64,000 nt of DNA, from assembly GCF_003790525.1 (NCBI RefSeq), contig NZ_CP033635.1, one strand, 5' to 3'. Below the pieces are notes generated by a model. That model was not told the origin of the DNA. It ran no database searches and was given only the letters and a program-made list of their open reading frames with translations. The DNA is from Escherichia coli (lineage in GTDB: Bacteria > Pseudomonadota > Gammaproteobacteria > Enterobacterales > Enterobacteriaceae). The position numbers and the translations under genes are program-made. Below, in pieces: positions 1 through 36,061 of the stretch (position 1 is the stretch's first letter; each line of letters begins with the position of its first letter).

Positions 1-482
1 AACTGTGTGCCCTTGATGACGTCGGTCATGCCGGAATAGGTGGCCCCCAGTAATTCGAGACCTTCTTCTTTCCGGAGGATATCGAGCACTTCCAGTTCGC
101 CGTGAACCCGGGCTTCCACATAGGTGAAGTCCGTGTTGTCGCGTCCTGGTGTGATATGCAGATCTGAGGCATCCAGTTGAGCGGCTTTTCTGATGTAATC
201 AAGAACTTTTCTTTGTACTGTGTTGATCCCTCCGTCGGATAAAACGCCCGGTGCACGTTCCGTATTATTGCTGTTCAGGGTTGCGATAACGTCAAGAGTG
301 GTAAAATCGAATTTGCTGATTTTTCCCGGATAGCGGGAGCGTAAGAGCGTCAGGTAACGTTGTACAGAGGTGATGTGCTTCTTCGCCTCGACGACTTTCA
401 CCCTGATTTTTCCGTCAGCGTCATGCTGAATTGCGACGAAATCACGAATATCTTCAGGAGGCAGTTCGATAGTCTCTGGCAT
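1..482 (-). CDS. pilQ: Type IVB pilus assembly ATPase, GspE/PilQ-like, N-terminal 160 aa only (runs off window)
   Basis: Hand translation from ATG at 482 stays open to position 1 (MPETIELPPEDIRDF...); contains ASDLHITP, close to the GspE/PilB-family SDIHIEP motif; follows pilP in R64-like order. Confidence 0.55.
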   Translation of the reverse strand, partial: MPETIELPPEDIRDFVAIQHDADGKIRVKVVEAKKHITSVQRYLTLLRSRYPGKISKFDFTTLDVIATLNSNNTERAPGVLSDGGINTVQRKVLDYIRKAAQLDASDLHITPGRDNTDFTYVEARVHGELEVLDILRKEEGLELLGATYSGMTDVIKGTQ

Positions 483-491
483 GATGGCACC

Positions 492-953
492 TCACGGGCG
501 TAGCGTCTGCCTGTTGCCGTTGTATTCCAGAATCACACTGTCCGGTGTGATTTGTTCCACCATGAACAGTGTACCGGGTAATGCCTGTCCGGCCCTGACA
601 TCAGTTTCAGTTCCTCCGGGGAGTATGACGCGTGCTGAAAGCTGTGGCTGAATACCAAAGATTTCTTTCAGACGGGGGGATGAAAATGCCTGTGAACCGG
701 AGGAGGTGCCAGCCGCATTTTCCGGCTGATGTCCCGTGACAGAACCGGAAACCGGGGAGATACCCTGTTCCAGTGTCCGCAATTCATGACGAATTTTTTC
801 TCTTGCCAGCATCGCTTCATACAGGGCGGTTTCTTCCTGAATCTGCTCAATCTGCAGTTGTTTGTTCTGTGACGCGTCATTTTCGTTGCCGGCCACTGCC
901 ATTGCCGGTAACAGCAGGGCTGCAATCAGCAGCGCTTTTGTTTTATCGTGCAT
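492..953 (-). CDS. pilP: Type IVB pilus protein PilP-like (signal peptide)
   Basis: ORF 492..1160; likely start at internal Met giving MHDKTKALLIAALLLPAMAVAG signal peptide (about 153 aa); overlaps pilO end; position in operon. Confidence 0.45.
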   Translation of the reverse strand: MHDKTKALLIAALLLPAMAVAGNENDASQNKQLQIEQIQEETALYEAMLAREKIRHELRTLEQGISPVSGSVTGHQPENAAGTSSGSQAFSSPRLKEIFGIQPQLSARVILPGGTETDVRAGQALPGTLFMVEQITPDSVILEYNGNRQTLRP

Positions 954-2241
954 AATATTTACCTGTGAACTGATAACGGAAACGACCATTTTCCAGTTGT
1001 CTTGTGACAGAGAGAAAACGGACAGATGGCTCGCTGAAGCGCTCTGCCAGCTGGTTAGCCGGGAGTAGCGTCTGTATCTGCAGGTCATACTCTTTCCACG
1101 GTGGCTGGATGATGTTTCCGTTTTCATCAGTGAAGCTGTTATTGACTTCCTGCCAGTCAATCTGCAGTTGAACTGACTGTGCGAGCGTGGTCAGTCGTTC
1201 CTGCAGGTCTCGGGTTTCCGGAAGGGAATCAACCGGGACAGGATTATCCGGGAGCCGGAATGTGACCGGCAGTGCAACGCCGCCAGAGTTCCCTTCAGGC
1301 ATAACAATAAACGGCCGGGTGTCTGTGAGTTCAGTGATGCGCCGGATGAAGGCTGTCACTGTCGTGCCTGCTGTATTGGTGTATGAAGACCGCAGATTAC
1401 CGCTGTTACCGTCAGTAGAACATTCAGCCAGGGTATAACGCCATCCGGCAGCAGACAGTGGCGTCTGGTTCCATGTTGTGCTGCATTGCCGGATAAATTC
1501 TCCGCTCTCAGGCTGCCTCGTCCATGGTGGCGTTATACGTGCTTCAGCTGCTTTCCGGGCGCTTTCTTCCCGTTCCGCTTTTTCCGCCTGCCAGATTTCA
1601 TAACGTTGCCAGCCGTACCACGATGCGCCAAGCAGCGTGATGATGAGTAAGGCTGTCATTAACTGTGGGCCTCTGGACACGGGGAGCAGACGCGCTTCTG
1701 CCGGATGCTTTCTGGTGCTGATCAGGTTTGACAGCGGTAGCGGGATACACCGACTGTCTGGTGAAAAACCGTCAGGTTCGTAGCGTACCCAGCCGTTTTC
1801 CGGTTCCGCATTGAGCATCAGGAACGTGTTGCGGGCTTCCGTGATTTCAGTCGGGGTACCGGTAACGTCGTTAACCAGAATGCCATTAATCACCGATACA
1901 AACGCACAGGTGAGTTCAGCGTCGTCGTTCTCGATGATGAAAATGGCATACCCACCTGATTTGAGTAGCGGGCGTATTAACATTGCCAGTGACAGGCACT
2001 GGCGAATGTTACGGGGGATATCTGCATCCTGACGACTGAGCAGGGCAATCATCATTTCATCACCGTTTTCACCGTCGTGGTTGTGGCAGGAAAGATACAG
2101 TTCTGCGCCCTGTGACCGGGCAAACCGCCGGGCATTCCGGTAACCGGGAGGTATGCTCTTCCAGTCAAGGCCCGCAAGGAATGCCTGTTTACCCGATATC
2201 AGTGAAACCGGACGAATTTTTTTCTGCATTGACCCGTTCAA
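943..2241 (-). CDS. pilO: Type IVB pilus biogenesis protein PilO-like
   Basis: 432-aa ORF with one internal hydrophobic segment; size and position between secretin and pilP match R64 PilO (about 431 aa). Confidence 0.5.
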   Translation of the reverse strand: MNGSMQKKIRPVSLISGKQAFLAGLDWKSIPPGYRNARRFARSQGAELYLSCHNHDGENGDEMMIALLSRQDADIPRNIRQCLSLAMLIRPLLKSGGYAIFIIENDDAELTCAFVSVINGILVNDVTGTPTEITEARNTFLMLNAEPENGWVRYEPDGFSPDSRCIPLPLSNLISTRKHPAEARLLPVSRGPQLMTALLIITLLGASWYGWQRYEIWQAEKAEREESARKAAEARITPPWTRQPESGEFIRQCSTTWNQTPLSAAGWRYTLAECSTDGNSGNLRSSYTNTAGTTVTAFIRRITELTDTRPFIVMPEGNSGGVALPVTFRLPDNPVPVDSLPETRDLQERLTTLAQSVQLQIDWQEVNNSFTDENGNIIQPPWKEYDLQIQTLLPANQLAERFSEPSVRFLSVTRQLENGRFRYQFTGKYYAR

Positions 2242-2252
2242 GGGAACCTCCG

Positions 2253-3878
2253 TCAGATTACGTGCGGTGTGATCAGCACAACCAGAATGGTGTCATCGTC
2301 ACCGCTGTCAGTGCCGCCACCCAGCCCGAAGAATGCCGGGCTGCCGACGCCCTGGCGCACGGATTTGCTGCCGGACTGCCGGAATCCGCTGAGAATGACG
2401 GTCTGACCTGATTTCAGGTCGATGGTCTGGTTGATGGTTTTCAGGTCTACCGTGGGCACCTGTGCCCGGCTGCCGCCGCTCTCGAACACCTCAAAGGTGG
2501 GTTTGTCGGAGAGGTTCATGCTGAAGAGCAGCTGCAGGCTGCGCGCATCCGGCTGAATGAACGGCAGCAGGGTCATGTTGAAGCCGGTGGTGATGGTGGC
2601 GGCGTTCAGGGAGGTGCTGGTCCCGACGTTGGCCGTGGTGTCGGTGGTGACACCTTCGATATAGCCCTGCTGGCTGGCCACCTGCATGGGCACCGGCGTC
2701 ATGTTTTTGGTGACGGCGGAGTTCTGTGTGACCACGCTGACGGTGCCCTGACTGGAGAGCGCCTTCAGGAAGGCCTTCGAGCCGGTGAGCTTACCGTCCA
2801 CAATGGAGACGCCACTGGTGATGATGTCATCGGCGGCACTGCTGAATGCCCCTCCCAGCGTGAGGCCGAGACGTCCGTCGCTGAAGACGGCATTCCAGTC
2901 AATGCCGGCCTGGTCACGGCGGGTTTTTCTGACGCTGAGGACTTCCACGTTCAGCACCACCTGACGTCGCATCTCGCGGTTACGTGCCTCCACAAAACGG
3001 CTGACGGTGTCGAGGACCCGAGGGGTGTCGGTGACGGTGAGAAAGCCGGTGGCAAGCACCATCCGGCCGGTCCCGGGGGTCAGCATGGCACCGACGGCAT
3101 TTTTCAGGTCCTCATAGAGGGTGGACTTCATGTCGACCGTGGTGGTCTGGGTGTTGCTGGCCTCCCCGCTGAGGGTGCCGGCGTTACTGCCGGTACTGCT
3201 GCCGGATGAGGAGGAGGCGGTGCCGCTGACCACCCGGGCGTTGTAGGTCACCTGAGAGTCCATGTAGGTGACCGGGAAGGTGCGTGTCTCCAGCCAGTAA
3301 AAGGTGATGGCGCGCCGGTCACTGTCGTAACGGTACGAGATACCGAGCCGGGAGGCGACGGTATCCAGCAGCTGCCGCAGCCCGGTGGCGCTGAGTTCCG
3401 GCAGGACGGCACCGCCGCCCGGGGGGATGACCTGTGCGCCACTGCCGACGGCGGCCAGCGGCACCATGCCGTTCGGGTCCGGTGCGGGGATTGCGCCTGT
3501 CAGCTGCTGTGTGGGGCCGGTGGTGGCCAGCGCCTGCCAGACGTCGGCGGTGATGGTCACGGGGATACCGCAGCTTCCGGTGATGCGCTGGGCTATCTGC
3601 CGCAGGCTGATATCCCGGCGGGTGTTGATGATGATGGGGCAGCCCGGCAGGCTCTGGTGTGCGGGGCTGACGCTGACAGGGGAGGGGTTGATCCACTGTC
3701 GCGTGGTCTCCGTGACCACCGGCCGGGATTTACGGAGTTCGCCCGCGTGCCGGCGCGCTTTCTCCAGTGTGGCGGTGGCGTCTTTTTCCGTGTTGCTGAT
3801 ACGTTCGGCCGTACCGCAGCCTGACAGCAGCAGGGCGACGGCAGTCAGTGGCAGGAGCATGTGTTGTCTTTTTTTCAT
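2253..3878 (-). CDS. pilN: Type IVB pilus secretin lipoprotein PilN-like
   Basis: Start at 3878 gives MKKRQHMLLPLTAVALLLSGC (lipobox LSGC) preceded by an AAGGA RBS; C-terminus ...TILVVLITPHVI is secretin-like; about 541 aa. Confidence 0.7.
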   Translation of the reverse strand: MKKRQHMLLPLTAVALLLSGCGTAERISNTEKDATATLEKARRHAGELRKSRPVVTETTRQWINPSPVSVSPAHQSLPGCPIIINTRRDISLRQIAQRITGSCGIPVTITADVWQALATTGPTQQLTGAIPAPDPNGMVPLAAVGSGAQVIPPGGGAVLPELSATGLRQLLDTVASRLGISYRYDSDRRAITFYWLETRTFPVTYMDSQVTYNARVVSGTASSSSGSSTGSNAGTLSGEASNTQTTTVDMKSTLYEDLKNAVGAMLTPGTGRMVLATGFLTVTDTPRVLDTVSRFVEARNREMRRQVVLNVEVLSVRKTRRDQAGIDWNAVFSDGRLGLTLGGAFSSAADDIITSGVSIVDGKLTGSKAFLKALSSQGTVSVVTQNSAVTKNMTPVPMQVASQQGYIEGVTTDTTANVGTSTSLNAATITTGFNMTLLPFIQPDARSLQLLFSMNLSDKPTFEVFESGGSRAQVPTVDLKTINQTIDLKSGQTVILSGFRQSGSKSVRQGVGSPAFFGLGGGTDSGDDDTILVVLITPHVI

Positions 3879-3940
3879 GCAGAAATCCTTGTGTGAAACG
3901 TGAAAACAGTGAGCAGAGCAGGGAGGGCAGAAGCGCTTCG

Positions 3941-4012
3941 GGACTGAAGTCTGCGCGTGATGGCGATATATCCGCGGGACATGACCGCGGCCGGATATGC
4001 AGACTTCAGTCC
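3941..4012. promoter_or_regulatory. Nested inverted-repeat structure in pilM-pilN intergenic region
   Basis: Perfect 14-bp inverted repeat GGACTGAAGTCTGC (3941-3954) / GCAGACTTCAGTCC (3999-4012) enclosing inner inverted repeat ATATCCG / CGGATAT and CCGCGG palindromes. Confidence 0.5.
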
Positions 4013-4067
4013 ACAGGCTCCTCACACTGTGCGGGACAGCGAAGGTTAACGGTGCAGTGATGTCCCG

Positions 4068-4505
4068 CTAGTTGAAATAAACAAATGCGCTGTCAGGAAT
4101 GACGGACGGCACGCTGATACCGGTGTCCTGACCTGTGGTGTTCAGCAGTCGCCGCCCCTTCACCCGGCCTGCCAGCGCGGTTTTGTGGGTGATGTCTGCC
4201 AGCGCACCTGCAAGCCCCGGGCGGTCATCCTGCCAGACAAAGACCCGCTGTCCGGCGATGATATGGCGGGTACCGTATACCGGGCGGAAACCCGTGGCGG
4301 TGACGGGGAGCGTGCCACCCCCCGTGCGCTCAGCCGGATGGGTGTACAGCCGGTCGTTAATGCCGTTCATGAGGCGGACCATCTCCCACGCACGTTCACG
4401 CATCTCCGCCTGCTCGCTGTACACGGTGACCCGGTGGGTACTGCTGTTGTGAAACCAGGTCAGCGCCACGGTCAGGGCCATGACCAGGGAGAGCGACCAG
4501 CCCAT
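4068..4505 (-). CDS. pilM: Type IVB pilus protein PilM-like
   Basis: Start at 4505 (MGWSLSLVMALTVALTW, N-terminal hydrophobic) lies 2 nt after the pilL stop; 145 aa, same length as R64 PilM. Confidence 0.45.
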   Translation of the reverse strand: MGWSLSLVMALTVALTWFHNSSTHRVTVYSEQAEMRERAWEMVRLMNGINDRLYTHPAERTGGGTLPVTATGFRPVYGTRHIIAGQRVFVWQDDRPGLAGALADITHKTALAGRVKGRRLLNTTGQDTGISVPSVIPDSAFVYFN

Positions 4506-4507
4506 GG

Positions 4508-5233
4508 TCAGTCTCCCGGTCTGTCGCTGACGTGCACCACACACTGCGTGCTGTTGATGGCTGCATACAGCGGCGTCTGTGCGTCCTGATAGAGACGGAA
4601 GAGTTCACTGAGCGCGTGGCGGAACTCGCCGGTGAAATGCAGCGGCGCATCGATGCTGTAATTGAGTCCGGGGTTCTGCCAGGCCAGCTGCCAGGTGCCA
4701 CCGGCCTGACAGGGAACGGCGGCCACCCACTGCTCAAGACCGGCACGCAGCAGGGTTCCGCGGGCAAGAGTCCAGGTGGTCCGTGCATGCGCCGGTTGCG
4801 GCATGTTTGCTGATTTTTCCGCGGTTTTTTCCTGCAGACTGGTGGTGCCCGGGGTGGCCTGAGACGGACTGAACAGGGTGTTCCGCTCAATACGTACATG
4901 CTTCTTCTCCGTGTCGGTGATGGCGCGGAGCTGATATTTTTTCAGCATGCGTTCCGTAACGTAATTCCACTGGTCATTTCCCTTCCATGACACCGTGCGG
5001 GGCGGCCTGACATCCGGTGCAATGTCAAATGTCCATCCCGGCGGTATCAGTTGCTGCATGGCTTTTTTCAGTGATAACCCTTTACCGTCCCGGGGAATAA
5101 ATTTCAGTGCTCCCGGAGCGCTGCTGACCGTGGACGATGAGGGTGCACTGACCTGAGAAGGTGACGGTGCAGCAAAAAGTGGAACAGAAAATGCCAGCAG
5201 CGGCACAATAAGAAGTGGTTTCAGTGGTGTCAT
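4508..5233 (-). CDS. pilL: Type IVB pilus protein PilL-like (secreted)
   Basis: 241-aa ORF with signal peptide MTPLKPLLIVPLLAFSVPLFA; second gene of the minus-strand operon. Confidence 0.45.
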   Translation of the reverse strand: MTPLKPLLIVPLLAFSVPLFAAPSPSQVSAPSSSTVSSAPGALKFIPRDGKGLSLKKAMQQLIPPGWTFDIAPDVRPPRTVSWKGNDQWNYVTERMLKKYQLRAITDTEKKHVRIERNTLFSPSQATPGTTSLQEKTAEKSANMPQPAHARTTWTLARGTLLRAGLEQWVAAVPCQAGGTWQLAWQNPGLNYSIDAPLHFTGEFRHALSELFRLYQDAQTPLYAAINSTQCVVHVSDRPGD

Positions 5234-5285
5234 ATTATGGTCCTGTATCGCACATTTTTTGTGTTTCCTGAGCCTGTATCCGGTT

Positions 5286-5504
5286 TTATTCCGGCTGAAC
5301 TCTGCTGCATGAGAATGCGGTGACGTTCACTTTCACACTGAACGATTTACCGGCCTCTTTTTCTTTTAAAAACAGCCTGACGCATTCAGGCTCAGTCATC
5401 GGTGTGTTCTGAAAACGCACCCAGGATACCGGTGCACCACCAGGCTTCAGGATGGTGGCTTCAATCCGGTATTTATGCGGTGTGGTGTCTGTTGTTGCTG
5501 TCAT
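5286..5504 (-). CDS. Small hypothetical protein (72 aa), first gene of the pil operon
   Basis: ATG at 5504 preceded by AGGAG at about 7 nt; no recognisable domain. Confidence 0.35.
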   Translation of the reverse strand: MTATTDTTPHKYRIEATILKPGGAPVSWVRFQNTPMTEPECVRLFLKEKEAGKSFSVKVNVTAFSCSRVQPE

Positions 5505-5512
5505 TCATGGCT

Positions 5513-5580
5513 CCTGTTGCCGGTTTCCGGTCCCGGAAAAACAGGCGACATCAGCAACAAGGGGAAAAACGCGATGTCGC
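5513..5580. promoter_or_regulatory. Palindrome cluster upstream of pil operon (candidate operator / oriT-related site)
   Basis: CCTGTT...TTTCCGG-TC-CCGGAAA...AACAGG (5513-5545) and 8-bp inverted repeat GCGACATC / GATGTCGC (5545-5580). Confidence 0.35.
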
Positions 5581-6030
5581 CTGAAAGGTACTGGTGCAGC
5601 GGTGCGTTGTACGGACGCAGGTCCGCACAACCGGAAATACACGGGATGATTCGGTCAGTGTATTTTCGTGTTGTGCGCCTGTACTGATACGGCAGGGTGT
5701 GATGAGTGTTACCTGTGGCTGCAGGCGCGGCACGTCACTCATAACGTAGCATTCTGTTTCCTCCTCAGCCCGGCTTCAGGGCGTTGCCGCAATACCCGAT
5801 TGTTAAAGAGCCTTACCGGCATGGTGTCCGGTGTCACCGCGCGGATAACGATACGGCGGTGTCTGAAGGGATGATGCTGCGGCGCTCTGCACATGGCGAC
5901 GATTAATTCTTTTTGTGTTTCTGAAAATTTATTGCCGGGAAATTTCTGGTGTGACAGGGTGAATTAATTCTGGTCAGCGACGCTCCTGAGAAGGCAGAGT
6001 GCGCTGACATTTCGTGAACGGAGGAATGCC

Positions 6031-7539
6031 ATGTCCCTGAATCCCACCGATGAACAGTCAGCCATCATTCACTGGCAGGGGGAAAAACTGGTGGTGAATG
6101 CCTTTGCCGGTACAGGCAAAACCAGCACACTGGTGCAGTTCGCCGCAGCCTGCCCTGAGAGCCGGATGCTGTATCTGGCCTATAACCGCGCGATTCGTGA
6201 TGAGGCGGAGCGCCGGTTTCCCTTTAATGTGGAGTGCAAAACCTCCCATCAGCTGGCGTATTCGCGGTTCGGAAAGCATTTCCGGCATCGTCTGGTGCCG
6301 GGGCTGTCAGTGACGGATGTAGCGAGAAAACTGAACACCCGCTACTGGACGCTTGCCCGTGTTGCCATGACCGCGCTGAATCAGTTCATCTGTTCGGCGG
6401 ACGTGGCGCCCGGAATGCAGCATATGCCGCCTCCCGACGAGATGAAGGGCATGTCGCCACAGGATGCGCTGCGTGCCGTGCAGATCCTCTGGCATGAAAT
6501 GAGCAATCCGGATGGCAATTTTCCGGTCACTCACGACACCTATCTGAAGCTCTATCAGCTTTCCTCACCGGATCTGTCACGCAGGTGGGATACGATCCTT
6601 TTTGATGAGGCCCAGGATGCGAATCCGGTGACGTCCGCACTGGTGCTGGGGCAGCGGTGCAGGGTGGTACTGGTTGGCGACCGTTACCAGCAGATTTATC
6701 GTTTTCGTGGTGCCAGCGATGCACTGTCGCATCCGGCACTGAACGGGGCGGACCGTCTCTGGCTGACGCAAAGTTTTCGTTTTGGTCCTGCCGTGGCCGG
6801 GGTGGCCAGCCAGTTACTGAAGCGTGCCGGCGAGAGCCGTGAGGTGACCGGCAGGGGCGGGGATGATGAAGTGCTGACGGCAGGTGAAATGCGTGCGCGC
6901 GTGAAGGCAGGGAAGATGACCGGTCACAGGGCGATACTGAGCCGGACGGTGGCCGGTGTGATTGGCACGGCACTGATGGCGGCAATGCGTGGCAGGAAGG
7001 TTTACTGGGTGGGGGGCATTGAAGGCTACAGAACGGAAGCACTGGAAGATCTTTACTGGTTTCAGATGGACATGCCGGAGCGGATGCACAGTGACAGACT
7101 GCGAAAGGACTACCGGAGTTTTGACGAGTACCGTCATATTGCGAAGGTGACGAAGGATGTGGAAATGAATCAGTCCATTCGTCTGCTGGAGCTGTGCTTT
7201 CCGCTGCCGAAGAAACTCGAACTTCTCAGAAAGCACACCGTCACGAATGAACAGGAGGCGGATATCACGGTCTCAACGGCACACCGCAGTAAGGGACTGG
7301 AGTGGGCACTGGTGATACTCGATGATGATTTTCAGGATATCACCGACCCGCTGATAAGCGAGCAGGAGCGGCGTGATGAAACCAATCTGCTCTATGTGGC
7401 GGTCACCCGGGCGCGCAGAACGCTGGTTCTCAATGAGCTCATGCAGCAACTGACGGAAGCTGCCGGCGATGGTGGTGCACCCGGAAACGCGCCGGTGCAG
7501 GGGAAGGAAGACGATGGCGTGGAGGGAGAGGATGTTTAA
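6031..7539 (+). CDS. SF1 (UvrD/Rep-like) DNA helicase
   Basis: 502-aa ORF; Walker A AFAGTGKTS; ILFDEAQD Walker B-like; C-terminal VSTAHRSKGLEW and LLYVAVTRAR motifs typical of UvrD_C; GGAGGAA RBS before the ATG. Confidence 0.75.
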   Translation: MSLNPTDEQSAIIHWQGEKLVVNAFAGTGKTSTLVQFAAACPESRMLYLAYNRAIRDEAERRFPFNVECKTSHQLAYSRFGKHFRHRLVPGLSVTDVARKLNTRYWTLARVAMTALNQFICSADVAPGMQHMPPPDEMKGMSPQDALRAVQILWHEMSNPDGNFPVTHDTYLKLYQLSSPDLSRRWDTILFDEAQDANPVTSALVLGQRCRVVLVGDRYQQIYRFRGASDALSHPALNGADRLWLTQSFRFGPAVAGVASQLLKRAGESREVTGRGGDDEVLTAGEMRARVKAGKMTGHRAILSRTVAGVIGTALMAAMRGRKVYWVGGIEGYRTEALEDLYWFQMDMPERMHSDRLRKDYRSFDEYRHIAKVTKDVEMNQSIRLLELCFPLPKKLELLRKHTVTNEQEADITVSTAHRSKGLEWALVILDDDFQDITDPLISEQERRDETNLLYVAVTRARRTLVLNELMQQLTEAAGDGGAPGNAPVQGKEDDGVEGEDV

Positions 7540-9157
7540 GCGGTTCAGACGTATGCTGCCCGGCACAAAGGTCACGGAGCCAGGCGTGGTCGCGCCGGTG
7601 ATACCGGCAGGGTTTTATGCGCCGCTCACAGCAGAAGCACTGTTATCACCAGAGCACAGGGAACTGAGGCTCAGGCAGGTATGGGATAACAATCCGATGC
7701 CCCGTGATGTATACGACAGGATGTGCCTTGCGCCACTCAGCCGGCTGTTGCTGAACACCCAGAATGTGCCGGCAACACGGGAAGGACGGTGGTCCCGTGC
7801 CGGTGGATTTGGTGATCTGACGGTACTGTACACCACGTATGCCGTTCGTCTGGCAAGAGGGTACATGTTTCCACCGGATGCGACCCCGGAAGACCAGGCG
7901 GCTCAGGCCGCAGTCTGGCATACGGTGATTTTCTGGTCAGCGCTGTTTTACCACCTGCCCCTGCTGGCGCACCTTGAGGGGGAGCTGCTGAGTGGTCGGG
8001 GCTGGCAGCCAGGGATTTCTGTGCCTGACGAACCTTTCCGTTTCCGGTTCAGGAAGACGGCGCCGCAGGGCACGGAAGCGCAACAACTGGCGGCCCTGAC
8101 TGCCGGCACGCTGTTACCGGACGGCGCAACGGCCTGGCTTGTGACGGCGCCGGGGGCGCTGCAGAATCTGGCCGGGGCGCTCTGGCATCAGCATCCCGGG
8201 ATGGCGCTGATTCGTGATGTGCTGCAGGAAGCGGCAAGGCAGACAGAGAGTCCGCTGAATACCTGCGCTGTCACTGCGCCGGTTACTGCGGAGGCTTCAG
8301 CAGACATCCGTCCTGCTGACCCGGTGGTGACCGGCAGCACGGACAGTGTGATGGCAGTCACTGAGGTGCAGCCGGCAGAGGAGGTGAAGACTGAGAGCGT
8401 GCAGACAGAGACTGAAGGTGGTGGTGAGTCCGCCGGAGCGTCAGAGGTGCCGTCCGCACAGCAGGAACTGACGGTTCAGACAGCGCCAGTGGTGACGGCA
8501 GATGATGAAGCGGTCAGTGCTTCTCCTGCGGATCAGGACACAGCAATGCTGCTGAGTCTTTTTTCAGCAGATGAGTCCGAAACTGCTGAACGGGATAATG
8601 GGGATGTGGTGATGCTGGCTGATGAGGAAGAAGCGCAGGATCTCACCGATGGACCGGATGAAGGCGATTCGTCTCCGGGCAGTATTCATGAATCGCCGTA
8701 TCTGGTGGAGAGTGACGCGTCGGTTAATCAGTCCGTATCCGGGGAATACCGCGCAACAGAAGTGAATCCGCTTACCGGAGATGATCCTGATTTAAAGGGA
8801 GAGACGTTTTTGGACTGGCTTAAAGCAGGGCTGAACAGTGGTGAGATATCATTTAACCAGAAAGGCGACAAAATACACATTGTTGCAGGACTGGTTTTCC
8901 TGCCGGTACCAGGCATTTTCTTTGATTACCTGAAAGCAGTGCAGCTTCCCGGGGACAAACGCCCGATTGTTCAGTCATCATTTGAGCGGCTCTGTATCAA
9001 TAAACGCCGTGATGACCAGCGTTTTTATTTTGCTCGTATTGCTGAGGAACCCGGGAACTGTGCACGTTACAAAACAGTCAAAGGTTACCTGGTCAAAGGA
9101 CGTAGTCTGATGCATGAAAGTAAACTGAAAGACAGTCCTTATCTTTTTATTTCGTGA
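7514..9157 (+). CDS. Putative conjugative relaxase (TraI_2 / MOBH-like) with acidic low-complexity linker
   Basis: ORF 7469..9157; start chosen at ATG 7514 (AAGGAAG RBS), overlapping helicase stop; C-terminal segment (IHIVAGLVFLPVPGIFFDYLK...) resembles TraI_2_C; family assignment is from memory. Confidence 0.5.
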   Translation: MAWRERMFKRFRRMLPGTKVTEPGVVAPVIPAGFYAPLTAEALLSPEHRELRLRQVWDNNPMPRDVYDRMCLAPLSRLLLNTQNVPATREGRWSRAGGFGDLTVLYTTYAVRLARGYMFPPDATPEDQAAQAAVWHTVIFWSALFYHLPLLAHLEGELLSGRGWQPGISVPDEPFRFRFRKTAPQGTEAQQLAALTAGTLLPDGATAWLVTAPGALQNLAGALWHQHPGMALIRDVLQEAARQTESPLNTCAVTAPVTAEASADIRPADPVVTGSTDSVMAVTEVQPAEEVKTESVQTETEGGGESAGASEVPSAQQELTVQTAPVVTADDEAVSASPADQDTAMLLSLFSADESETAERDNGDVVMLADEEEAQDLTDGPDEGDSSPGSIHESPYLVESDASVNQSVSGEYRATEVNPLTGDDPDLKGETFLDWLKAGLNSGEISFNQKGDKIHIVAGLVFLPVPGIFFDYLKAVQLPGDKRPIVQSSFERLCINKRRDDQRFYFARIAEEPGNCARYKTVKGYLVKGRSLMHESKLKDSPYLFIS

Positions 9158-9210
9158 GTGGAGGGGAGGCTATTATTGCAGGAATGTGAATGAAATGTAA
9201 AAGGTAATCA

Positions 9211-10200
9211 ATGAAAATAAATAATGCGGATAAGTGCTGGAATGATTTGATGGATGAGTTTTTTTTCTGCCGTTCAGTACGTGAAGCTACGGAGTGGAGC
9301 TACAGAAAGGTGCTGAACGGATTCCGTAAGTTTGTTGGCGGGACTCTGTTACCGGAAGATATCCGACAACAACATGTCAGGGAGTGGCGACGGGAGGTCC
9401 TGAAAAACCAGAAACGTTCAACTCATACATGGAACAACAAGGTACGCCATATGCGCGCTATCTTCAGTTTTGCTTCCTCATCTGAACTCCTGCATTTAAG
9501 TTGTAACCCGTTTGAGGGTATGAGCGTCAGACAGGAAAAGAAACGCAAAAAAACACTGACCCGGAAACAAATAAAACGCATCCTGCTGGTCCTTGAGCAG
9601 TTTCAGGAGGATGAAATGAACCTGAAGATGCACTGGAAGTGCGCCATTCGTCCGGCCTGGTACTGGATTATTGTGGTTAACACACTTCGCTTTACGGGGA
9701 TGAGGCTGAATCAGCTGCTGCATCTGCGCCTGCGGGATGTTAATCCTGAAGAACGGTGGATTGATTTATGCTCTGAAGGCAGCAAGACACATCATGAGTG
9801 GCGGATCCCGATGGTCAGTCATCTGGTTCCGGGGATAACCAGGCTGATGGATGAAGCGGTGAAACGTGGAGCCACGCCTGATGATTATCTTTTCCACTAT
9901 CATCGCTATGCTTTGCCTGTGTCTGAAGCATTATCGGTGAGCGGACCTCCGGAAGAGCAGAAGGTCAAAGGTTTTTTCCGGCGTCTGTCGAAAGAGTGTG
10001 GTTTTCAGGTATCTGCACATCGTTTCAGACACACTCTGGCAAGTACTCTGATGGCGGCACCGGAACGAAATCTGTACATGGTGAAAACCATGCTGGGTCA
10101 CCGGAATGTTTCAACGACACTGGAATATGTGGAGATGGATCTGAAGGGAACAGCACGTATACTTGAGGCCGAACTGTCAAAACTGACAGACGATCTTTAA
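9211..10200 (+). CDS. int: Tyrosine recombinase / integrase (329 aa)
   Basis: RBS AAGGTAA; catalytic-looking residues in LRFTGMR, HRFRHT, GHRNVSTT and LEYVE (R, H-x-x-R, H, Y); adjacent to tRNA-Phe 3' end. Confidence 0.85.
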   Translation: MKINNADKCWNDLMDEFFFCRSVREATEWSYRKVLNGFRKFVGGTLLPEDIRQQHVREWRREVLKNQKRSTHTWNNKVRHMRAIFSFASSSELLHLSCNPFEGMSVRQEKKRKKTLTRKQIKRILLVLEQFQEDEMNLKMHWKCAIRPAWYWIIVVNTLRFTGMRLNQLLHLRLRDVNPEERWIDLCSEGSKTHHEWRIPMVSHLVPGITRLMDEAVKRGATPDDYLFHYHRYALPVSEALSVSGPPEEQKVKGFFRRLSKECGFQVSAHRFRHTLASTLMAAPERNLYMVKTMLGHRNVSTTLEYVEMDLKGTARILEAELSKLTDDL

Positions 10201-10396
10201 TCAGGTGATTGCTTACAGTTGTTGACAACATGAAAAACCGTTGCAATCATAATGAATGATCGAGAAAGGGAGCATGCGACCAACATGCTCCCCAATCGAG
10301 AAAATGAGATGGCATGACCTAGACTCACGACATCTTGCACCTTCCCGATGACACCCGTCAGGGTTCTCACTCCTGACCAGTGGCTTTGATGTAAGG

Positions 10397-10472
10397 TGGT
10401 GCCCGGAGGCGGAATCGAACCACCGACACGGGGATTTTCAATCCCCTGCTCTACCGACTGAGCTATCCGGGC
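10397..10472 (-). tRNA. pheV: tRNA-Phe (GAA), pheV locus, variant T-stem
   Basis: Reverse complement reads GCCCGGATAGCTCAGTCGGTAGAGCAGGGGATTGAAAATCCCCGTGTCGGTGGTTCGATTCCGCCTCCGGGCACCA; matches E. coli tRNA-Phe except four compensatory T-stem changes. Confidence 0.9.
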
Positions 10473-10577
10473 AACGGGGCGCATTAAACCTGATTCGCCT
10501 CGTCTCGTCAATCAAATTTCTTCAATTTACTGCAGACTGCACAATCTATCATCACTTTGCCGCTATTGCACGCATTG

Positions 10578-11306
10578 TCAGGCAAACCAGGCGGTCCAGG
10601 CGGCGGAAAGCGGCATTGCCAGAAGGAGTGCTGGAAGCATGTTGACCACCGGGAACATTTTAATGCCACAGATGCGTAATCCGGTTGCCAGCAGCAATAA
10701 ACCGCCTACGGCGCTGAAGTCTGCCATCATCGACGGTGTGGTCAGCGGTAATATCAGCGCGGCAGCCCACGCCAGTGTTAACTGGATGATCAGTAATGGA
10801 ATGCTAATCACCGACACCGCAATACCCAGCGAGCAGGCGAAGATCATCGCCGTAAAGAAATCGAGAAATGACTTGGCGATTAAAATACTCGGATCGCCGG
10901 TCATCCCTTCGTTCATCGCCCCGAAGATCCCGGTGCCGCTGGCGCAAAACAGGACAATAATCGCGACATAATTCTGAATAAAAGATTCATGCGCTGGCTT
11001 CTTAGGTGAGTGGCGAAACAGATTTTGTGCTTTGGTGACCGCGGTATTGACCCCTTTTTCCAGCAGACACATTTCGCCGATTAATGCACCGAGTAAGGTT
11101 GCTAAAACCATCGCCGGAAGGTTGGCGCATTTCACCACCAGTAAAATACCAATCCCCAGCGATGCCAGACCAAAAATTGATGTCATGGAGACGCGGATAC
11201 GTTCCGGTAAGCGTTGACTAAGGAGTGCACCGAGAACGCCACCCAGTAATACTGCACTTGCGTTGATAAAAGGACCGATGACCACAAGAGTTCCTGTTAG
11301 CTGCAT
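10578..11306 (-). CDS. yqgA: DUF554 inner membrane protein YqgA
   Basis: 242-aa polytopic membrane ORF next to pheV as in K-12. Confidence 0.85.
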   Translation of the reverse strand: MQLTGTLVVIGPFINASAVLLGGVLGALLSQRLPERIRVSMTSIFGLASLGIGILLVVKCANLPAMVLATLLGALIGEMCLLEKGVNTAVTKAQNLFRHSPKKPAHESFIQNYVAIIVLFCASGTGIFGAMNEGMTGDPSILIAKSFLDFFTAMIFACSLGIAVSVISIPLLIIQLTLAWAAALILPLTTPSMMADFSAVGGLLLLATGLRICGIKMFPVVNMLPALLLAMPLSAAWTAWFA

Positions 11307-16463: not shown

Positions 16464-16742
<279 letters not shown>

Positions 16743-16766
16743 TCATCCTCTTTATCGACTCACGTG

Positions 16767-17819
16767 CTAAACCGGCGCGCCAGTGCGTAACTGCTGTAAC
16801 AAACGCTCCACGGGAGCCGCCAGGCCAACTGACGGCGGTTGCGCTAAGTTATACCAGAGCGCATTGCCTTCATCCATGCAGCCGGTGAATGACGACACGG
16901 GAAGCCACATAGGCACAATATCTAAGTGGAAATGGCTGAAGGTATGCCGAAACGCGGTCAGTTGCGTCAGGTTATCGGCAGCAATCTGCCGTTGCGCCAG
17001 CCACTGCCGCAAACTTTCTTCGTCGGCAAACTGTGGGAAACAGTATAAACCGCCCCACAATCCACTCGGCGGGCGTTGCGCCAGCAATACCTCATCATCA
17101 TGCTGTAACAGTAAAAAGTAACCCGTGCGCTCCGGTAGCGTCTGCTTTGGTTTTTTGCCCGGATAAAGCGACCAGCTATTGTTGGCGGCGGCAATACACC
17201 CGTTTTGTAGCGGACAGAGCGAACATTTCGGCTTCGAGCGCGTACAAATCATCGCGCCCAAATCCATCATCGCCTGATTAAACCGTTCCACGCCGACCGC
17301 GGGCGTCACCTGCGCGCTCAAACTCCATAGTTTATTCTCGACCTCTTTTTTCCCAGGCCAGCCGCTTACAGCATAGCAGCGCGCCAGCACCCGTTTGACG
17401 TTACCGTCGAGAATCGGAAAGTGCTTACCCAGAGAAAGCGAGAGAATCGCACCTGTGGTGGAACGCCCGACGCCCGGTAACGCCGCGACTTCTTCAAAGG
17501 TTTCCGGGAATTTACCGCCGTGTAAGGTCGCCACTTGTTGTGCCGCTTTATGCAGATTGCGCGCGCGGGCGTAATAGCCAAGCCCGGTCCACAAGTGGAG
17601 AACTTCGTCGAGCGGCGCATTGGCGAGATCGGTCACCGTTGGGAAGCGCGCCATAAAGCGTTCAAAATAGGGGATAACGGTCGCAACCTGAGTTTGTTGC
17701 AACATCACTTCTGAGAGCCATACTTTGTAGGGCGTCTTGTCAATTTGCCAGGGCAGCGTTTTCCGCCCGTATTTATCGTACCAGTCCAGAACCTGGGCTG
17801 AAAATTGCGACGCTTGCAT
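16767..17819 (-). CDS. mutY: Adenine DNA glycosylase MutY
   Basis: 350 aa from [20 protein letters not shown]...; 4Fe-4S cysteine cluster region present. Confidence 0.95.
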
Positions 17820-19928: not shown

Positions 19929-20103
19929 TCCTCTATTTTAAGACGGCATAATACTTTTTTATGCCGTTTAATTCTTCGTTTTGTTACCTGCCTCTAACTT
20001 TGTAGATCTCCAAAATATATTCACGTTGTAAATTGTTTAACGTCAAATTTCCCATACAAAGCTAAGGGATAATGCGTAGCGTTCACGTAACTGGAGGAAT
20101 GAA

Positions 20104-21150
20104 ATGGAGTTTTTCAAAAAGACGGCACTTGCCGCACTGGTTATGGGTTTTAGTGGTGCAGCATTGGCATTACCCAATATCACCATTTTAGCAACCGGCG
20201 GGACCATTGCCGGTGGTGGTGACTCCGCAACCAAATCTAACTACACAGCGGGTAAAGTTGGCGTAGAAAATCTGGTTAATGCGGTGCCGCAACTGAAGGA
20301 CATTGCGAACGTTAAAGGCGAGCAGGTAGTGAATATTGGCTCCCAGGACATGAACGATGATGTCTGGCTGACACTGGCGAAAAAAATTAACACCGACTGC
20401 GATAAAACCGACGGCTTCGTCATTAACCACGGTACCGACACGATGGAAGAAACCGCTTACTTCCTCGACCTGACGGTGAAATGCGACAAACCGGTGGTGA
20501 TGGTCGGCGCAATGCGCCCGTCCACGTCCATGAGCGCAGACGGTCCATTCAACCTGTATAACGCGGTAGTGACCGCAGCTGATAAAGCCTCCGCTAATCG
20601 TGGCGTGCTGGTGGTGATGAACGACACCGTACTGGACGGTCGCGATGTCACCAAAACCAACACCACCGACGTAGCGACCTTCAAGTCTGTTAACTACGGT
20701 CCTCTGGGATACATTCACAACGGTAAGATTGACTACCAACGTACCCCGGCACGTAAGCACACCAGCGATACGCCATTCGATGTCTCTAAGCTGAATGAGC
20801 TGCCGAAAGTCGGCATCGTTTATAACTACGCTAACGCATCCGATCTTCCGGCTAAAGCACTGGTAGATGCGGGCTATGATGGCATCGTTAGCGCTGGTGT
20901 GGGTAATGGTAACCTGTATAAATCCGTGTTCGACACCCTGGCAACCGCTGCGAAAAACGGCACTGCAGTCGTGCGTTCTTCCCGCGTACCGACGGGCGCT
21001 ACCACTCAGGATGCTGAAGTGGATGATGCAAAATACGGCTTCGTCGCCTCTGGCACGCTGAACCCGCAAAAAGCGCGCGTTCTGCTGCAACTGGCTCTGA
21101 CGCAAACCAAAGATCCGCAGCAGATCCAGCAGATCTTCAATCAGTACTAA
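20104..21150 (+). CDS. ansB: L-asparaginase II (periplasmic)
   Basis: 348 aa; signal peptide; conserved TGGTIAG motif. Confidence 0.95.
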   Translation: MEFFKKTALAALVMGFSGAALALPNITILATGGTIAGGGDSATKSNYTAGKVGVENLVNAVPQLKDIANVKGEQVVNIGSQDMNDDVWLTLAKKINTDCDKTDGFVINHGTDTMEETAYFLDLTVKCDKPVVMVGAMRPSTSMSADGPFNLYNAVVTAADKASANRGVLVVMNDTVLDGRDVTKTNTTDVATFKSVNYGPLGYIHNGKIDYQRTPARKHTSDTPFDVSKLNELPKVGIVYNYANASDLPAKALVDAGYDGIVSAGVGNGNLYKSVFDTLATAAKNGTAVVRSSRVPTGATTQDAEVDDAKYGFVASGTLNPQKARVLLQLALTQTKDPQQIQQIFNQY

Positions 21151-22274: not shown

Positions 22275-22329
22275 CTCATGTTAAGTGCCTTTGCCGGATA
22301 ATATAAAAAGTTATCCGGCAAATTATTTT

Positions 22330-23631
22330 TTACATTAGCCCTAGTAGCTGTGGAATGAACAAGGATATTTGCGGGATGTAAGTGATCATCATCAACGCGA
22401 TTAACAATGCGGCATAAAATGGCAGCAATGGTTTGATCAAATGTTGAATCTTCACACCTGAAATAGAACAACCAACAAATAGCGCACTACCCACCGGCGG
22501 TGTTAACAGCCCAATACAAAGGTTAGCCACCATCATAATACCGAAATGTACCGGATCCATTCCCAGCTCTTGTGCAATCGGCAAGAAGATTGGTGTGAAG
22601 ATTAGTACAGCTGGTGTCATGTCCATAAAGATGCCGACAATTAATAAGACGATATTAATCAGCAGCAATATGACCAGTGGGTTATCAGAAATCCCCATCA
22701 ACGCGTCGCTGATCATATAAGGAATATCAGCATTGGTCATTGCCCAGGACATGCCCACGGAAAAACCGATCAACAGTAATACAATCGAAGTGGTAACAAC
22801 TGATTCCAGAATCAGTTTGGGTAAATCGCGCCATTTTACTTCCCGGTAAATCAGCACCGAGAGAATAAATGTGTAGACAACGGCAATCGCAGACGCTTCA
22901 GTTGCGGTAAAAATGCCGCCCAGAATGCCGCCCATCACAATGAACACCAGAAGCAAACTTGGTAAGGCATCCAGAAACGCTTTACAGGCCTGAGCGAAGG
23001 TTGCTCTTTCTGAAAGCGGGTAGCCACGGCGTTTAGCAATAATGCCGCAGACTATCATTACCGCGAGACCCATTAAGATCCCTGGCAAATATCCCGCCAT
23101 AAATAATGATGCTACAGAAACGCCGCCAGCTGTCAGGGAAAACACAATTAACACGTTTGAGGGCGGTATCAGTAATCCAGTAATACAAGATGAGACGTTT
23201 ACAGCGGTAGAAAATGCCGGATCATAACCTTCTTTGGTCTGAATGGGATTCAGTGTGCCACCAACGGCAGCAGCTGCCGCAACGGCTGAACCAGAAATGG
23301 AACCAAACATCATATTCGCCAGGACGTTCACATGACCAAGCGAACCAGGAACGCGGCCAACCATTACCTGGGCGAGGTTAATCAAGCGTATCGCAATACC
23401 GCCGCTGTTCATCAGCGTTCCGGCAAAGATGAAAAAGGGGATTGCCAATAGGGCAAAGTTATCCAGTCCATTAGCCAGTCGCTGCGAAACAGTGATTGCC
23501 GCGATATCCCAGGGAAACATCAAAAGCATTGAAGCTACAGTGGCAATACCGATTGAGAACGAAATGGGCACACCAATAAAGACCAGCACAAAAAAACAGC
23601 CAAATAGTGTAAGCGCGATATAACTATCCAT
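22330..23631 (-). CDS. TRAP transporter large permease (DctM family)
   Basis: 433-aa polytopic membrane ORF; forms operon with DctQ/DctP-like genes. Confidence 0.8.
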   Translation of the reverse strand: MDSYIALTLFGCFFVLVFIGVPISFSIGIATVASMLLMFPWDIAAITVSQRLANGLDNFALLAIPFFIFAGTLMNSGGIAIRLINLAQVMVGRVPGSLGHVNVLANMMFGSISGSAVAAAAAVGGTLNPIQTKEGYDPAFSTAVNVSSCITGLLIPPSNVLIVFSLTAGGVSVASLFMAGYLPGILMGLAVMIVCGIIAKRRGYPLSERATFAQACKAFLDALPSLLLVFIVMGGILGGIFTATEASAIAVVYTFILSVLIYREVKWRDLPKLILESVVTTSIVLLLIGFSVGMSWAMTNADIPYMISDALMGISDNPLVILLLINIVLLIVGIFMDMTPAVLIFTPIFLPIAQELGMDPVHFGIMMVANLCIGLLTPPVGSALFVGCSISGVKIQHLIKPLLPFYAALLIALMMITYIPQISLFIPQLLGLM

Positions 23632-24143: not shown

Positions 24144-24178
24144 CCTGGAAAATCAGGGCCAGAGACTGGCCCGAAATA

Positions 24179-25165: not shown

Positions 25166-25376
25166 AAAAAAACTCCCTGTTGAAGGATGGAAATTGGTTG
25201 ATATCTAATTGTGCTTATCAGTGCTTTGTGCGACAAATTGGTTAACCTGTCTGACAACTTGTCTATGTTTATCACAACTTGAAATAAAGTCAGAAATTAA
25301 ATATTAAATTTGTGCGCCAGGTTGTACATGTTTATAATCAATAAATGATGAGTAAATATTCACTAAATATATATAA

Positions 25377-36010: not shown

Positions 36011-36039
36011 AAAAGAAAAAGGCCAGCGCGAGGCTGGCC
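36011..36039 (-). terminator. Rho-independent terminator after metK
   Basis: Stem GGCCAGC / GCTGGCC followed (on minus strand) by T-run. Confidence 0.7.
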
Positions 36040-36061
36040 TTTGAAAGCAGGTGAAGAAAGA

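Follow-up and report, generated by a model that had tools for sequence, protein, structure and literature searches.

A probable R64-type type IVb pilus operon on an ICE at pheV in Escherichia coli

Gene content of the pilus locus

Seven genes, all on the minus strand and in one direction, occupy positions 1–5504 of the window, the 64,000-nt stretch of E. coli contig NZ_CP033635.1 that we analysed: a small DUF1187 ORF, pilL, pilM, pilN, pilO, pilP and the start of pilQ (Table 1). The sequence-only reading had described this co-directional array, and its ORFs are all present. It had also called the genes partly overlapping, which holds only for pilO and pilP, which share 11 nt at the pilO stop; the remaining junctions are gaps, from 2 nt (pilL stop codon to pilM ATG) to 189 nt (pilM–pilN spacer). 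The higher GC content that it saw relative to the core was borne out (0.575 for 1–5504 versus 0.507 for 10473–64000), and the excess is concentrated in pilN (0.64, with GC3 of 0.82) and pilM (0.635).

Table 1. Features of the pilus locus and the adjoining ICE end in the window
Feature	Position	Strand	Description
pilQ 5′ fragment	3–482	-	Codons 1–160 of a 506-aa GspE/PulE-family pilus assembly ATPase, cut at the window edge
pilP	492–953	-	153 aa, signal peptide; PilP/GspC-like
pilO	943–2229	-	428 aa; type IVb pilin accessory protein PilO2
pilN	2253–3878	-	541 aa; outer-membrane lipoprotein secretin; lipobox LLLSGC at residues 15–20
pilM–pilN spacer	3879–4067	-	189 nt; 12-bp perfect inverted repeat (hairpin)
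pilM	4068–4505	-	145 aa from ATG 4505
pilL	4508–5233	-	241 aa; secreted TcpQ-domain protein, putative secretin partner
Small ORF	5286–5504	-	72 aa, DUF1187 family; putative pilus-operon member
Divergent intergenic region	5505–6030	.	526 nt, between the pil side and the helicase–relaxase–integrase side; presumed promoter region
UvrD-like helicase, ICE DNA-processing module	6031–7539	+	Weak partial UvrD/Rep/PcrA matches; RefSeq UvrD-helicase domain-containing protein
ICE relaxase TraI, MobH-related, PFGI-1 class	7532–9157	+	TIGR03760, 193.2 bits (cut-off 161.4)
ICE tyrosine recombinase/integrase	9211–10200	+	RefSeq annotation; Xer-type models 1e-25 to 1e-16
tRNA-Phe (pheV), attR end of ICE	10397–10472	-	ARAGORN; Rfam tRNA, 69 bits

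Curated models support five of the genes, those encoding PilN, PilP, PilO, PilM and PilL, and the plasmid reference was IncK2/Z pH2332-107 (NC_025138), an R64-like member of the IncI complex. PilN scores 415.4 bits with TIGR02520 (cut-off 287.65), matches Pfam Secretin_N_2 (1e-18) and Secretin (5e-11), and is 66% identical to its IncK2/Z counterpart (541 versus 539 aa); among solved structures, BfpB (9u5s, 5e-33) comes closest. PilP scores 103.3 bits with TIGR03021 (cut-off 34.65) and shares 60% identity with IncK2/Z PilP (153 versus 150 aa), while PilO, which RefSeq names pilO2, matches PF06864 (PAP_PilO) end to end at 5e-36 and shares 62% (428 versus 431 aa). PilM matches PF07419 (PilM, 8e-12) and aligns without gaps and end to end with IncK2/Z PilM (145 versus 145 aa, 39% identity). 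RefSeq places the pilM start at GTG 4544, giving 158 aa.

PilL carries the TcpQ domain (PF10671, residues 153–237, 6e-13) and aligns with the last 243 residues of the IncK2/Z protein at 31% identity. It lacks about 110 N-terminal residues of the 356-aa plasmid lipoprotein, and its own N-terminus resembles a signal peptide with no cysteine and hence no lipobox, whereas IncK2/Z PilL bears the lipobox LLSGC. Other short members of the PilL family exist, for example one of 223 aa with 44% identity.

The PilQ fragment is identical over all 160 residues to the first 160 of WP_001696152.1, a 506-aa protein of E. coli AR_0089 in which T2SSE (PF00437) spans residues 88–464 (7e-61), and it is on account of this identity that we call it a GspE-family ATPase. 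Over its full length, PilQ shares 85% identity with IncK2/Z PilQ. Domain searches recovered the predicted secretin in the 541-aa ORF, while the 160-aa fragment alone gave no Pfam or NCBIfam match; since the window stops at residue 160, before most of T2SSE, this null result does not refute the ATPase assignment. The assignments of PilL, PilM, the PilN secretin lipoprotein, PilO, PilP and the PilQ N-terminus made from sequence alone are therefore all backed, either through profile models or because annotated full-length proteins are identical.

The small ORF scores 91.3 bits with NF007283, slightly below the cut-off of 92, and matches phrog_5753 (3e-16); RefSeq annotates a DUF1187 family protein. 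Profile searches gave it no homology tie to pilus biogenesis, and it does not resemble the ORF found just before pilL in the IncK2/Z plasmid. Upstream of pilL there is no homologue of that plasmid ORF or of pilI. A sigma-70 consensus scan found no site in the divergent intergenic region and, overall, none above shuffle expectation. The pilM–pilN spacer folds as RNA at −63.2 kcal/mol (z = −2.2), has no Rfam match, and is far longer than the 30 nt found in the IncK2/Z plasmid.

ICE context and related genomes

Beyond the pilus genes, the window contains the right end of an ICE, comprising a helicase, a MobH-class relaxase, an integrase and tRNA-Phe. The relaxase scores 73 bits with the MobH model NF041494, under its cut-off of 200, and the Xer-type recombinase models all score under their cut-offs for the integrase, whose gene adjoins tRNA-Phe. 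pheV is followed by yqgA and speC, flanking genes of the core for which AR_0089 has annotations. The sequence-only reading makes no mention of integration at tRNA-Phe, and the comparison that it proposed with SPI-7, YAPI and PAPI-1 agrees with an ICE.

In 36 complete E. coli chromosomes this DNA recurs at 99.9% identity, with the pil genes named by RefSeq. AR_0089, the one relative examined in full, is 99.9% identical across window positions 1–5600, and left of the window edge it continues with pilQ-R-S-T-U-V, an R64-type shufflon and an rci-like recombinase, and repeats fitting GTGCCAATCCGGTnnnTGG occur as well. The pilR–pilV genes, pilin and prepilin peptidase that had been predicted to lie there were thus found in that genome, and the near-identical genomes suggest that the source genome would carry the same distal half. 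In AR_0089, the operon lies within an ICE of ~78 kb that ends at its far side in a partial tRNA-Phe copy. Besides TIGR037xx ICE conjugation genes, this element encodes ParA, a DnaB-PI protein of ‘SPI-7-type’, a conjugative ATPase and TraD, and its cargo includes iha, an adhesin/siderophore receptor gene.

The gene identities, the synteny and the ICE context are established here. Taken together, they make it highly likely that positions 1–5504 are the promoter-proximal half of an R64-type type IVb ‘thin pilus’ operon on an ICE at pheV, and nothing speaks against this identification. We are similarly confident that the element belongs to the PFGI-1/PAPI-1/pKLC102/SPI-7 class and is ICEEc2-like, a likeness drawn from description, at the 3′ end of tRNA-Phe (pheV). 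The operon is already known and ordinary, the same copies being annotated in dozens of genomes.

Proposed role of the pilus and alternative readings

For the copy in the window, we infer the roles of the individual proteins, the production of a pilus and its part in conjugation. The PilN lipoprotein secretin would form the outer-membrane channel, with PilL as a TcpQ-domain periplasmic partner, while PilP (PilP/GspC-like) and PilO may bridge the secretin to the inner-membrane platform and PilM would be a small membrane accessory protein. PilQ, as a GspE-family ATPase, would drive polymerisation of the PilS pilin. Judging from the genes left of the window in AR_0089, the machine would be completed by the PilR platform, PilS, the PilT transglycosylase, the PilU prepilin peptidase and the PilV tip adhesin, the last varied by the shufflon with its rci-like recombinase. 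Binding of PilV to recipient LPS would hold donor–recipient pairs, and the separate type IV secretion system of the ICE could then move the excised element. The most likely role of the pilus would be mating-pair stabilisation in ICE conjugation.

An adhesin or virulence role has been put forward for the pil clusters of SPI-7 (S. Typhi) and YAPI (Y. pseudotuberculosis), which are related to this one, and the pilus here might likewise serve chiefly in host colonisation or aggregation, making it less an aid to conjugation than a virulence factor in avian and extraintestinal pathogenic E. coli. Many genomes with the identical locus come from poultry (chickens, turkeys) or are human clinical isolates, iha is carried by the AR_0089 ICE, and deletion of the YAPI pil locus lowered virulence in mice infected orally (Collyn 2002, cited via PMC4458695). 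However, the operon sits inside an ICE transfer backbone, beside a relaxase, and is followed in AR_0089 by the R64-type shufflon and rci-like recombinase, hallmarks of recipient-specificity switching in conjugation. We therefore consider a chiefly adhesive function improbable, although the two roles are mutually compatible. It is more remote still that the cluster belongs to another secretin system, either type II secretion or a Bfp/Tcp-type colonisation pilus, and we give this reading next to no chance. PilN does match MshL, GspD, SctC and PilQ models weakly and has BfpB as its nearest structure, PilL has a TcpQ domain and PilP a faint GspC similarity, but TIGR02520 (PilN family, type IVB) is alone above its cut-off (415 versus 288 bits), with the other secretin models far under theirs. 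In addition, PilO, PilM and PilP fit R64-type families, gene order and sizes fit a plasmid thin-pilus operon, and PilV, the shufflon and the recombinase lie downstream in AR_0089. The curated-model scores and synteny thus rule out such an identity for practical purposes.

The thin-pilus operon could also be an inactive, decaying remnant, its window genes intact but the whole machine making no pilus. In AR_0089, pilT has an internal stop at codon 98, as it does in 11 other genomes with 100% identity there, and this could lower pilus function; PilL is short at its N-terminus and is not a lipoprotein; and no consensus sigma-70 promoter lies upstream. Against this, the six complete genes in the window are full length relative to their homologues, none of the six is flagged as a pseudogene by RefSeq, and the locus is at least 99.9% conserved in 36 genomes from varied sources. 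A second transglycosylase with an SLT domain is encoded on the ICE and might stand in for PilT, and short PilL-family proteins are known elsewhere. PMC13127887 describes pheV/pheU ICEs of clinical E. coli as transfer-proficient, and CH4804, one of the 99.9% matches, has a ‘CH’ prefix like the strain labels there, a likeness of name only. Decay of this kind appears very improbable.

Comparison with known systems

The order pilL-M-N-O-P-Q(-R-S-T-U-V-shufflon-rci-traE/F) is shared with IncI-complex plasmids (R64, ColIb-P9), as judged via pH2332-107, where the pil locus lies on an MPF_I plasmid rather than on a chromosomal ICE. The operon is a mosaic: over a stretch that starts at traF and takes in the 3′ two-thirds of pilQ, AR_0089 has 92–95% DNA identity to these plasmids, and identity breaks near window position 170. 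No plasmid exceeds ~71% DNA identity in the pilL–N part. Besides having a different ORF before pilL, the IncK2/Z plasmid has pilM and pilN genes that are far less GC-rich than those here (GC3 about 0.8). Outside its own cluster, PilN is closest to plasmid PilN proteins (65–68% identity), some of them named ‘R64 PilN family’. The best Salmonella matches reach 68% (P0004) and 60% (P0026) and may come from plasmids or ICEs; the Yersinia and Pseudomonas protegens matches are each at ~49%. On present data, PilN here seems at least as close to the plasmid proteins as to those of islands of the SPI-7/YAPI/CTnscr94/ICEPan type.

Among E. coli ICEs, ICEEc2 has reportedly been described at pheU (by Roche and colleagues in 2010), while the copy here is at pheV. 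The helicase–relaxase–integrase trio would correspond to a set of three DNA-mobility genes that ICEEc2 reportedly needs for its transfer. Both ICEEc2, from the avian pathogenic E. coli strain BEN374, and the pheV/pheU ICEs of PMC13127887 are pKLC102/PAGI-2/PAPI-family elements at a phe tRNA gene, as here, and the window combines a pil operon with this trio beside tRNA-Phe, a likeness to them taken from their descriptions. The ICEEc2 cargo may differ from that of AR_0089, which includes iha. The pheV/pheU ICEs transfer and mobilise chromosomal DNA, a statement that PMC13127887 attributes to Roche 2010.

SPI-7 (S. Typhi), YAPI (Y. pseudotuberculosis), CTnscr94 and ICEPan are enterobacterial ICEs or islands with a pilL–pilV locus, the last three at tRNA-Phe (PMC4458695), and among the proteins of the AR_0089 ICE, RefSeq lists a ‘SPI-7-type island replicative DNA helicase’ and members of the ‘STY4528/STY4534 family’. 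The Pseudomonas elements PAPI-1, pKLC102 and PFGI-1 (pilL2–pilM2 cluster) share the ICE class through the TIGR03760 relaxase and, in AR_0089, the TIGR037xx genes. The type IVb pilus of PAPI-1 is related to that of R64 and needed for island transfer, disruption of any of its 10 pil genes strongly lowers transfer, and PilV2 binds recipient LPS (PMC5297154). PAPI-1 differs in its tRNA-Lys insertion and in having its 10 pil genes in another order, with pilM2 last and no pilU listed (PMC5297154, PMC6761156). The TP114 type IV pilus takes part in stabilising mating pairs (PMC9045228). Finally, BfpB of EPEC is also a lipoprotein secretin, and PilL shares the TcpQ domain of the V. cholerae TcpC–TcpQ pair, but EPEC Bfp and V. 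cholerae Tcp are colonisation pili with different sets of accessory genes.

Gene content of the pil region

The left edge of the window carries seven co-directional reading frames on the minus strand, identified from an ORF list covering window 1–9000 and a separate translation of the left edge. The sequence-only reading had described them as the pilL–pilQ part of a thin-pilus operon truncated by the window edge; this observation is confirmed and its interpretation supported. Gene order and orientation, pilL-M-N-O-P-Q, are the same as in the IncK2/Z plasmid pH2332-107, an R64-like member of the IncI complex that served as the plasmid reference in place of R64 itself. The genes had been called partly overlapping, which is true of pilO/pilP (11 nt) but not of the other junctions, where gaps of 2, 9, 23, 52, and 189 nt are found. 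As had been seen by eye, the region is richer in GC than the core (0.575 versus 0.507). The excess sits in two genes, pilN (0.64, with third-position GC of 0.82) and pilM (0.635 and 0.78), against 0.52–0.55 in the adjacent pilO and pilP.

Features at the left end of the window, with amino acid identity of the Pil proteins to those of IncK2/Z plasmid pH2332-107
Feature	Position	Strand	Length	Remarks	Identity to plasmid protein
Small ORF	5286–5504	–	72 aa	DUF1187; phrog_5753	
pilL	4508–5233	–	241 aa	Secreted protein, TcpQ at C-terminus	31%, C-terminal part alone (194 residues)
pilM	4068–4505	–	145 aa	From ATG 4505; 158 aa if upstream GTG 4544 is used	39%, no gaps, 145 aa versus 145 aa
pilN	2253–3878	–	541 aa	Starts MKKRQHMLLPLTAVALLLSGC, lipoprotein signal	66%
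pilO	943–2229	–	428 aa		62%
pilP	492–953	–	153 aa		60%
pilQ, 5′ part	Start 482, off window edge	–	160 codons		85% (506-aa PilQ of a related genome)
UvrD-like helicase	6031–7539			Right of the pil genes	
Relaxase TraI	7532–9157			TIGR03760 ('ICE relaxase, PFGI-1 class'), 193.2 bits, cut-off 161.4	
Tyrosine recombinase/integrase	9211–10200				
tRNA-Phe	10397–10472			3′ end toward integrase	

Assignment of the Pil proteins

The product of pilN, expected to be a lipoprotein secretin, scored 415.4 bits against the NCBIfam model TIGR02520 ('PilN family type IVB pilus formation outer membrane protein'; cut-off 287.65), carries the Pfam domains Secretin_N_2 and Secretin, and has the lipobox LLLSGC on inspection of the sequence, all of which bears the expectation out. 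With the NCBIfam models for the MshL, SctC, GspD, and PilQ secretins, it fell far under each one's cut-off. Its closest solved structure is BfpB, the secretin of the EPEC bundle-forming pilus (9u5s, 5e-33). A search of 5.8 billion proteins placed PilN in a 90% cluster of its own with 292 members; the proteins next in line, at 65–68% identity, belonged for the most part to E. coli, Shigella, and Salmonella, and those of Serratia, Yersinia, and Pseudomonas were further off, at about 49–54%. Because of these next relatives and the comparisons with the plasmid proteins, 'R64 thin-pilus-like' is an accurate label for the operon.

Domain searches had been expected to find a GspE-family ATPase domain at the window edge as well as the secretin in the 541-aa ORF. 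The secretin was found, but the 160-aa PilQ fragment by itself had no match in Pfam or NCBIfam, and taken literally the check thus failed for this ORF. The edge falls at PilQ residue 160, ahead of most of the T2SSE domain. A related genome encodes a 506-aa protein whose first residues are identical to the fragment at 160/160 positions and in which T2SSE covers residues 88–464 (7e-61). This match supports reading the edge ORF as the N-terminus of a GspE-family ATPase. The PilO-, PilP-, and PilM-like assignments likewise stood: PilO matches PF06864 (PAP_PilO) over its full span (5e-36), PilP scored 103 bits on TIGR03021 (cut-off 34.65), and PilM, in either its 145- or 158-aa form, matches PF07419 (8e-12). 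RefSeq starts pilM at GTG 4544, giving the longer protein and a 37-nt overlap with pilL. We favour the 145-aa length originally proposed, because from ATG 4505 the protein aligns end to end and free of gaps with the 145-aa plasmid PilM; ATG 4505 is thus probably the true start.

PilL has a TcpQ domain at its C-terminus (Pfam) and a signal peptide without cysteine. The plasmid PilL, in contrast, is 356 aa long with the lipobox LLSGC, so that the ICE protein lacks both the lipobox and ~110 N-terminal residues. A word-indexed search with PilL returned its own cluster and nothing beyond, and a full HMMER scan showed PilL/TcpQ proteins to be of widely differing length, with other short forms among them, e.g. 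one of 223 aa at 44% identity; the short PilL is therefore not remarkable. A split PilL was considered, in which another ICE protein, called 'PilL N-terminal domain', would be the lost N-terminus, and was rejected when BLASTP gave no similarity. A PilL of Salmonella enterica serovar Infantis (match P0122) shows 100% identity across 93% of its length, and this record suggests that Salmonella also has the same ICE lineage.

The small ORF, the pilM–pilN spacer, and regulatory signals

Upstream of pilL, neither pilI nor a homologue of the plasmid ORF that precedes pilL was seen, and the DUF1187 ORF stands in that place. It scored 91.3 bits on NF007283, against a cut-off of 92, and falls in the phage protein family phrog_5753, which has no assigned function. 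Its identification as a pilK/pilJ equivalent was rejected, since it is unlike the plasmid ORF upstream of pilL and matches this phage family; its tie to pilus biogenesis is its position and nothing else.

The pilM–pilN spacer (3879–4067) is 189 nt long, compared to 30 nt in the IncK2/Z plasmid, and contains a 12-bp perfect inverted repeat, ACTGAAGTCTGC ... GCAGACTTCAGT, which forms a hairpin stem around a smaller palindrome. Its predicted RNA fold is mildly better than that of shuffled sequences (z = -2.2). In a search of 1–10600 for structured RNAs and riboswitches, Rfam at a permissive threshold gave tRNA-Phe alone, with no match in the spacer. Promoter and terminator counts in a scan of 1–6200 were not above shuffle expectation, and the sole promoter-like match falls within the pilL start region.

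The distal half of the operon in a related strain

For the DNA left of the window we turned to AR_0089, an E. coli strain 99.9% identical over window 1–5600. Here the rest of pilQ is followed by a T2SS-F platform gene, a type 4 major pilin, a lytic transglycosylase, a prepilin peptidase, and a shufflon-type pilV. The genes pilR–pilV, with the pilin and prepilin peptidase, had been predicted to lie left of the window; all are annotated in AR_0089, and we infer their presence from such near-identical genomes. Past pilV comes a 1.5-kb stretch with six repeats fitting GTGCCAATCCGGTnnnTGG, which we take to be the R64 shufflon repeat, and then an rci-like recombinase and traF. The lytic transglycosylase gene pilT (16739–17215 of the AR_0089 stretch L001) is a pseudogene with an internal stop at codon 98, and 11 further complete genomes, most of them from poultry, have the stretch with this stop at 100% identity. 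The stop might weaken pilus function, although the AR_0089 ICE encodes a second SLT-domain transglycosylase besides pilT.

The operon lies in an ICE at pheV

Thirty-six complete E. coli chromosomes, many of them of chicken, turkey, and human isolates, match window 1–5600 end to end at 99.9% identity, and for the genes there RefSeq already uses the names PilN family, pilO2, pilP, pilM, TcpQ family, and GspE/PulE. The relaxase to the right of the pil genes also matches the MobH family model NF041494, at 73 bits and so under the cut-off of 200. As yqgA and speC come after tRNA-Phe, the locus is pheV. The corresponding element of AR_0089 is ~78 kb long, begins at a partial tRNA-Phe copy at its far end, and encodes ParA, a 'SPI-7-type' DnaB, ParB, topoisomerase III, Ssb, TraD, a conjugative ATPase, and a full set of TIGR037xx ICE conjugation genes. 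The relaxase, the integrase at tRNA-Phe, and the contents of the AR_0089 element identify the element as a PFGI-1/PAPI-1/pKLC102/SPI-7-class ICE. In the literature, ICEEc2 of avian pathogenic E. coli BEN374 is assigned to the same class, and transfer and mobilisation of chromosomal DNA were recently shown for pheV/pheU ICEs of clinical E. coli (PMC13127887).

Other features were observed along the way. Amid the conjugation block, the AR_0089 ICE carries iha (siderophore receptor/adhesin) as cargo (35520–37607 of the AR_0089 stretch L002). The left end of this ICE (attL), at 79–156 of the same stretch, consists of a partial tRNA-Phe copy taken from the 3′ part of the gene; RefSeq calls it a 78-nt 'tRNA-Ser', probably a mis-call of the repeat. 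Elsewhere in the window, a low-GC block (0.43–0.46) at ~22300–25200 corresponds to a three-gene TRAP transporter cluster in the yggM–hemW interval of the AR_0089 annotation; to our knowledge, K-12 has no such cluster at this position.

Mosaic structure of the operon

In AR_0089, DNA identity to IncI-complex plasmids is 92–95% from traF into pilQ, covering the 3′ two-thirds of that gene. At window ~170, within pilQ, identity to these plasmids drops sharply, from about 90–95% to 46–60%, in the manner of a recombination breakpoint (window ~100–300; 20100–20300 of the AR_0089 stretch L001); right of this breakpoint it returns to about 80% over pilP and the 3′ part of pilO, and is then lower again. 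On no plasmid in the search was pilL–N found at more than about 71% DNA identity. The operon may be a three-part recombinant, a reading to which we give slightly less than an even chance. The distal module, which runs from the 3′ two-thirds of pilQ to traF and takes in pilV, the shufflon, and the rci-like gene, would have been exchanged recently with IncI-complex plasmids; the pilQ5′–pilP–pilO segment would be the part of E. coli-like composition; and pilM–pilN, with GC3 of about 0.8, would be foreign and come from an unsampled higher-GC lineage, the closest PilN relatives being 68% identical at most. A genome-contig search with PilN returned one locus, on a metagenome-assembled contig at 67% identity, and revealed nothing of the origin of this GC-rich segment. 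If the three-part reading is true, ICEs and IncI plasmids trade the adhesin/recipient-specificity half of the thin pilus, and each retains its own secretin and alignment half.

Proposed function and alternatives

Because of work on the related systems PAPI-1, TP114, and ICEEc2, a mechanism can be proposed. PilN would form the outer-membrane channel with the TcpQ-like PilL as its partner, and PilP and PilO would bridge toward the inner-membrane platform PilR. PilU would process the PilS pilin, which the PilQ ATPase would then polymerise, and PilV would act as the tip adhesin for recipient LPS, its C-terminus varied by the shufflon and recombinase. The pilus would keep donor and recipient together, and the separate type IV secretion system of the ICE would transfer the excised element. 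In PAPI-1, efficient transfer needs each of the 10 pil genes, and PilV2 binds LPS (PMC5297154); the type IV pilus of TP114 has a role in mating-pair stabilisation (PMC9045228). Going by the literature on TP114, PAPI-1, and ICEEc2 (PMC9045228, PMC5297154, and, citing the ICEEc2 result, PMC4458695), the product would be a thin flexible pilus required for liquid mating.

The pilus might instead serve mainly for host adhesion, as was once proposed for YAPI. This is possible and not exclusive of a role in conjugation, but the shufflon and the ICE context suit it less well. That the operon is decayed and silent could be argued from the pilT stop shared by AR_0089 and the 11 other genomes; however, the genes within the window are intact and 99.9% conserved over 36 genomes, and decay is not supported. 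The scores on curated models and the synteny exclude a third alternative, in which the cluster is part of another secretin system. The mating pilus is the preferred reading. In practice the result is of use as annotation, since it identifies the first 10.4 kb of the window as a conjugative element's right end, at pheV.

Comparison with known systems

The system is already known: it is an R64-type thin pilus on an ICE of the ICEEc2/PAPI-1 class, a kind that has been characterised experimentally, and dozens of complete E. coli genomes already have the locus, with the right names in RefSeq. The IncK2/Z plasmid has the order traF, a hypothetical gene, rci, and pilV-U-T-S-R-Q-P-O-N-M-L, the same as in the ICE operon, and all differences between the two are minor. 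Only the plasmid/ICE mosaic, with its compositionally foreign pilM–pilN, is mildly new, and it is of modest interest for the evolution of conjugative pili and recipient specificity.
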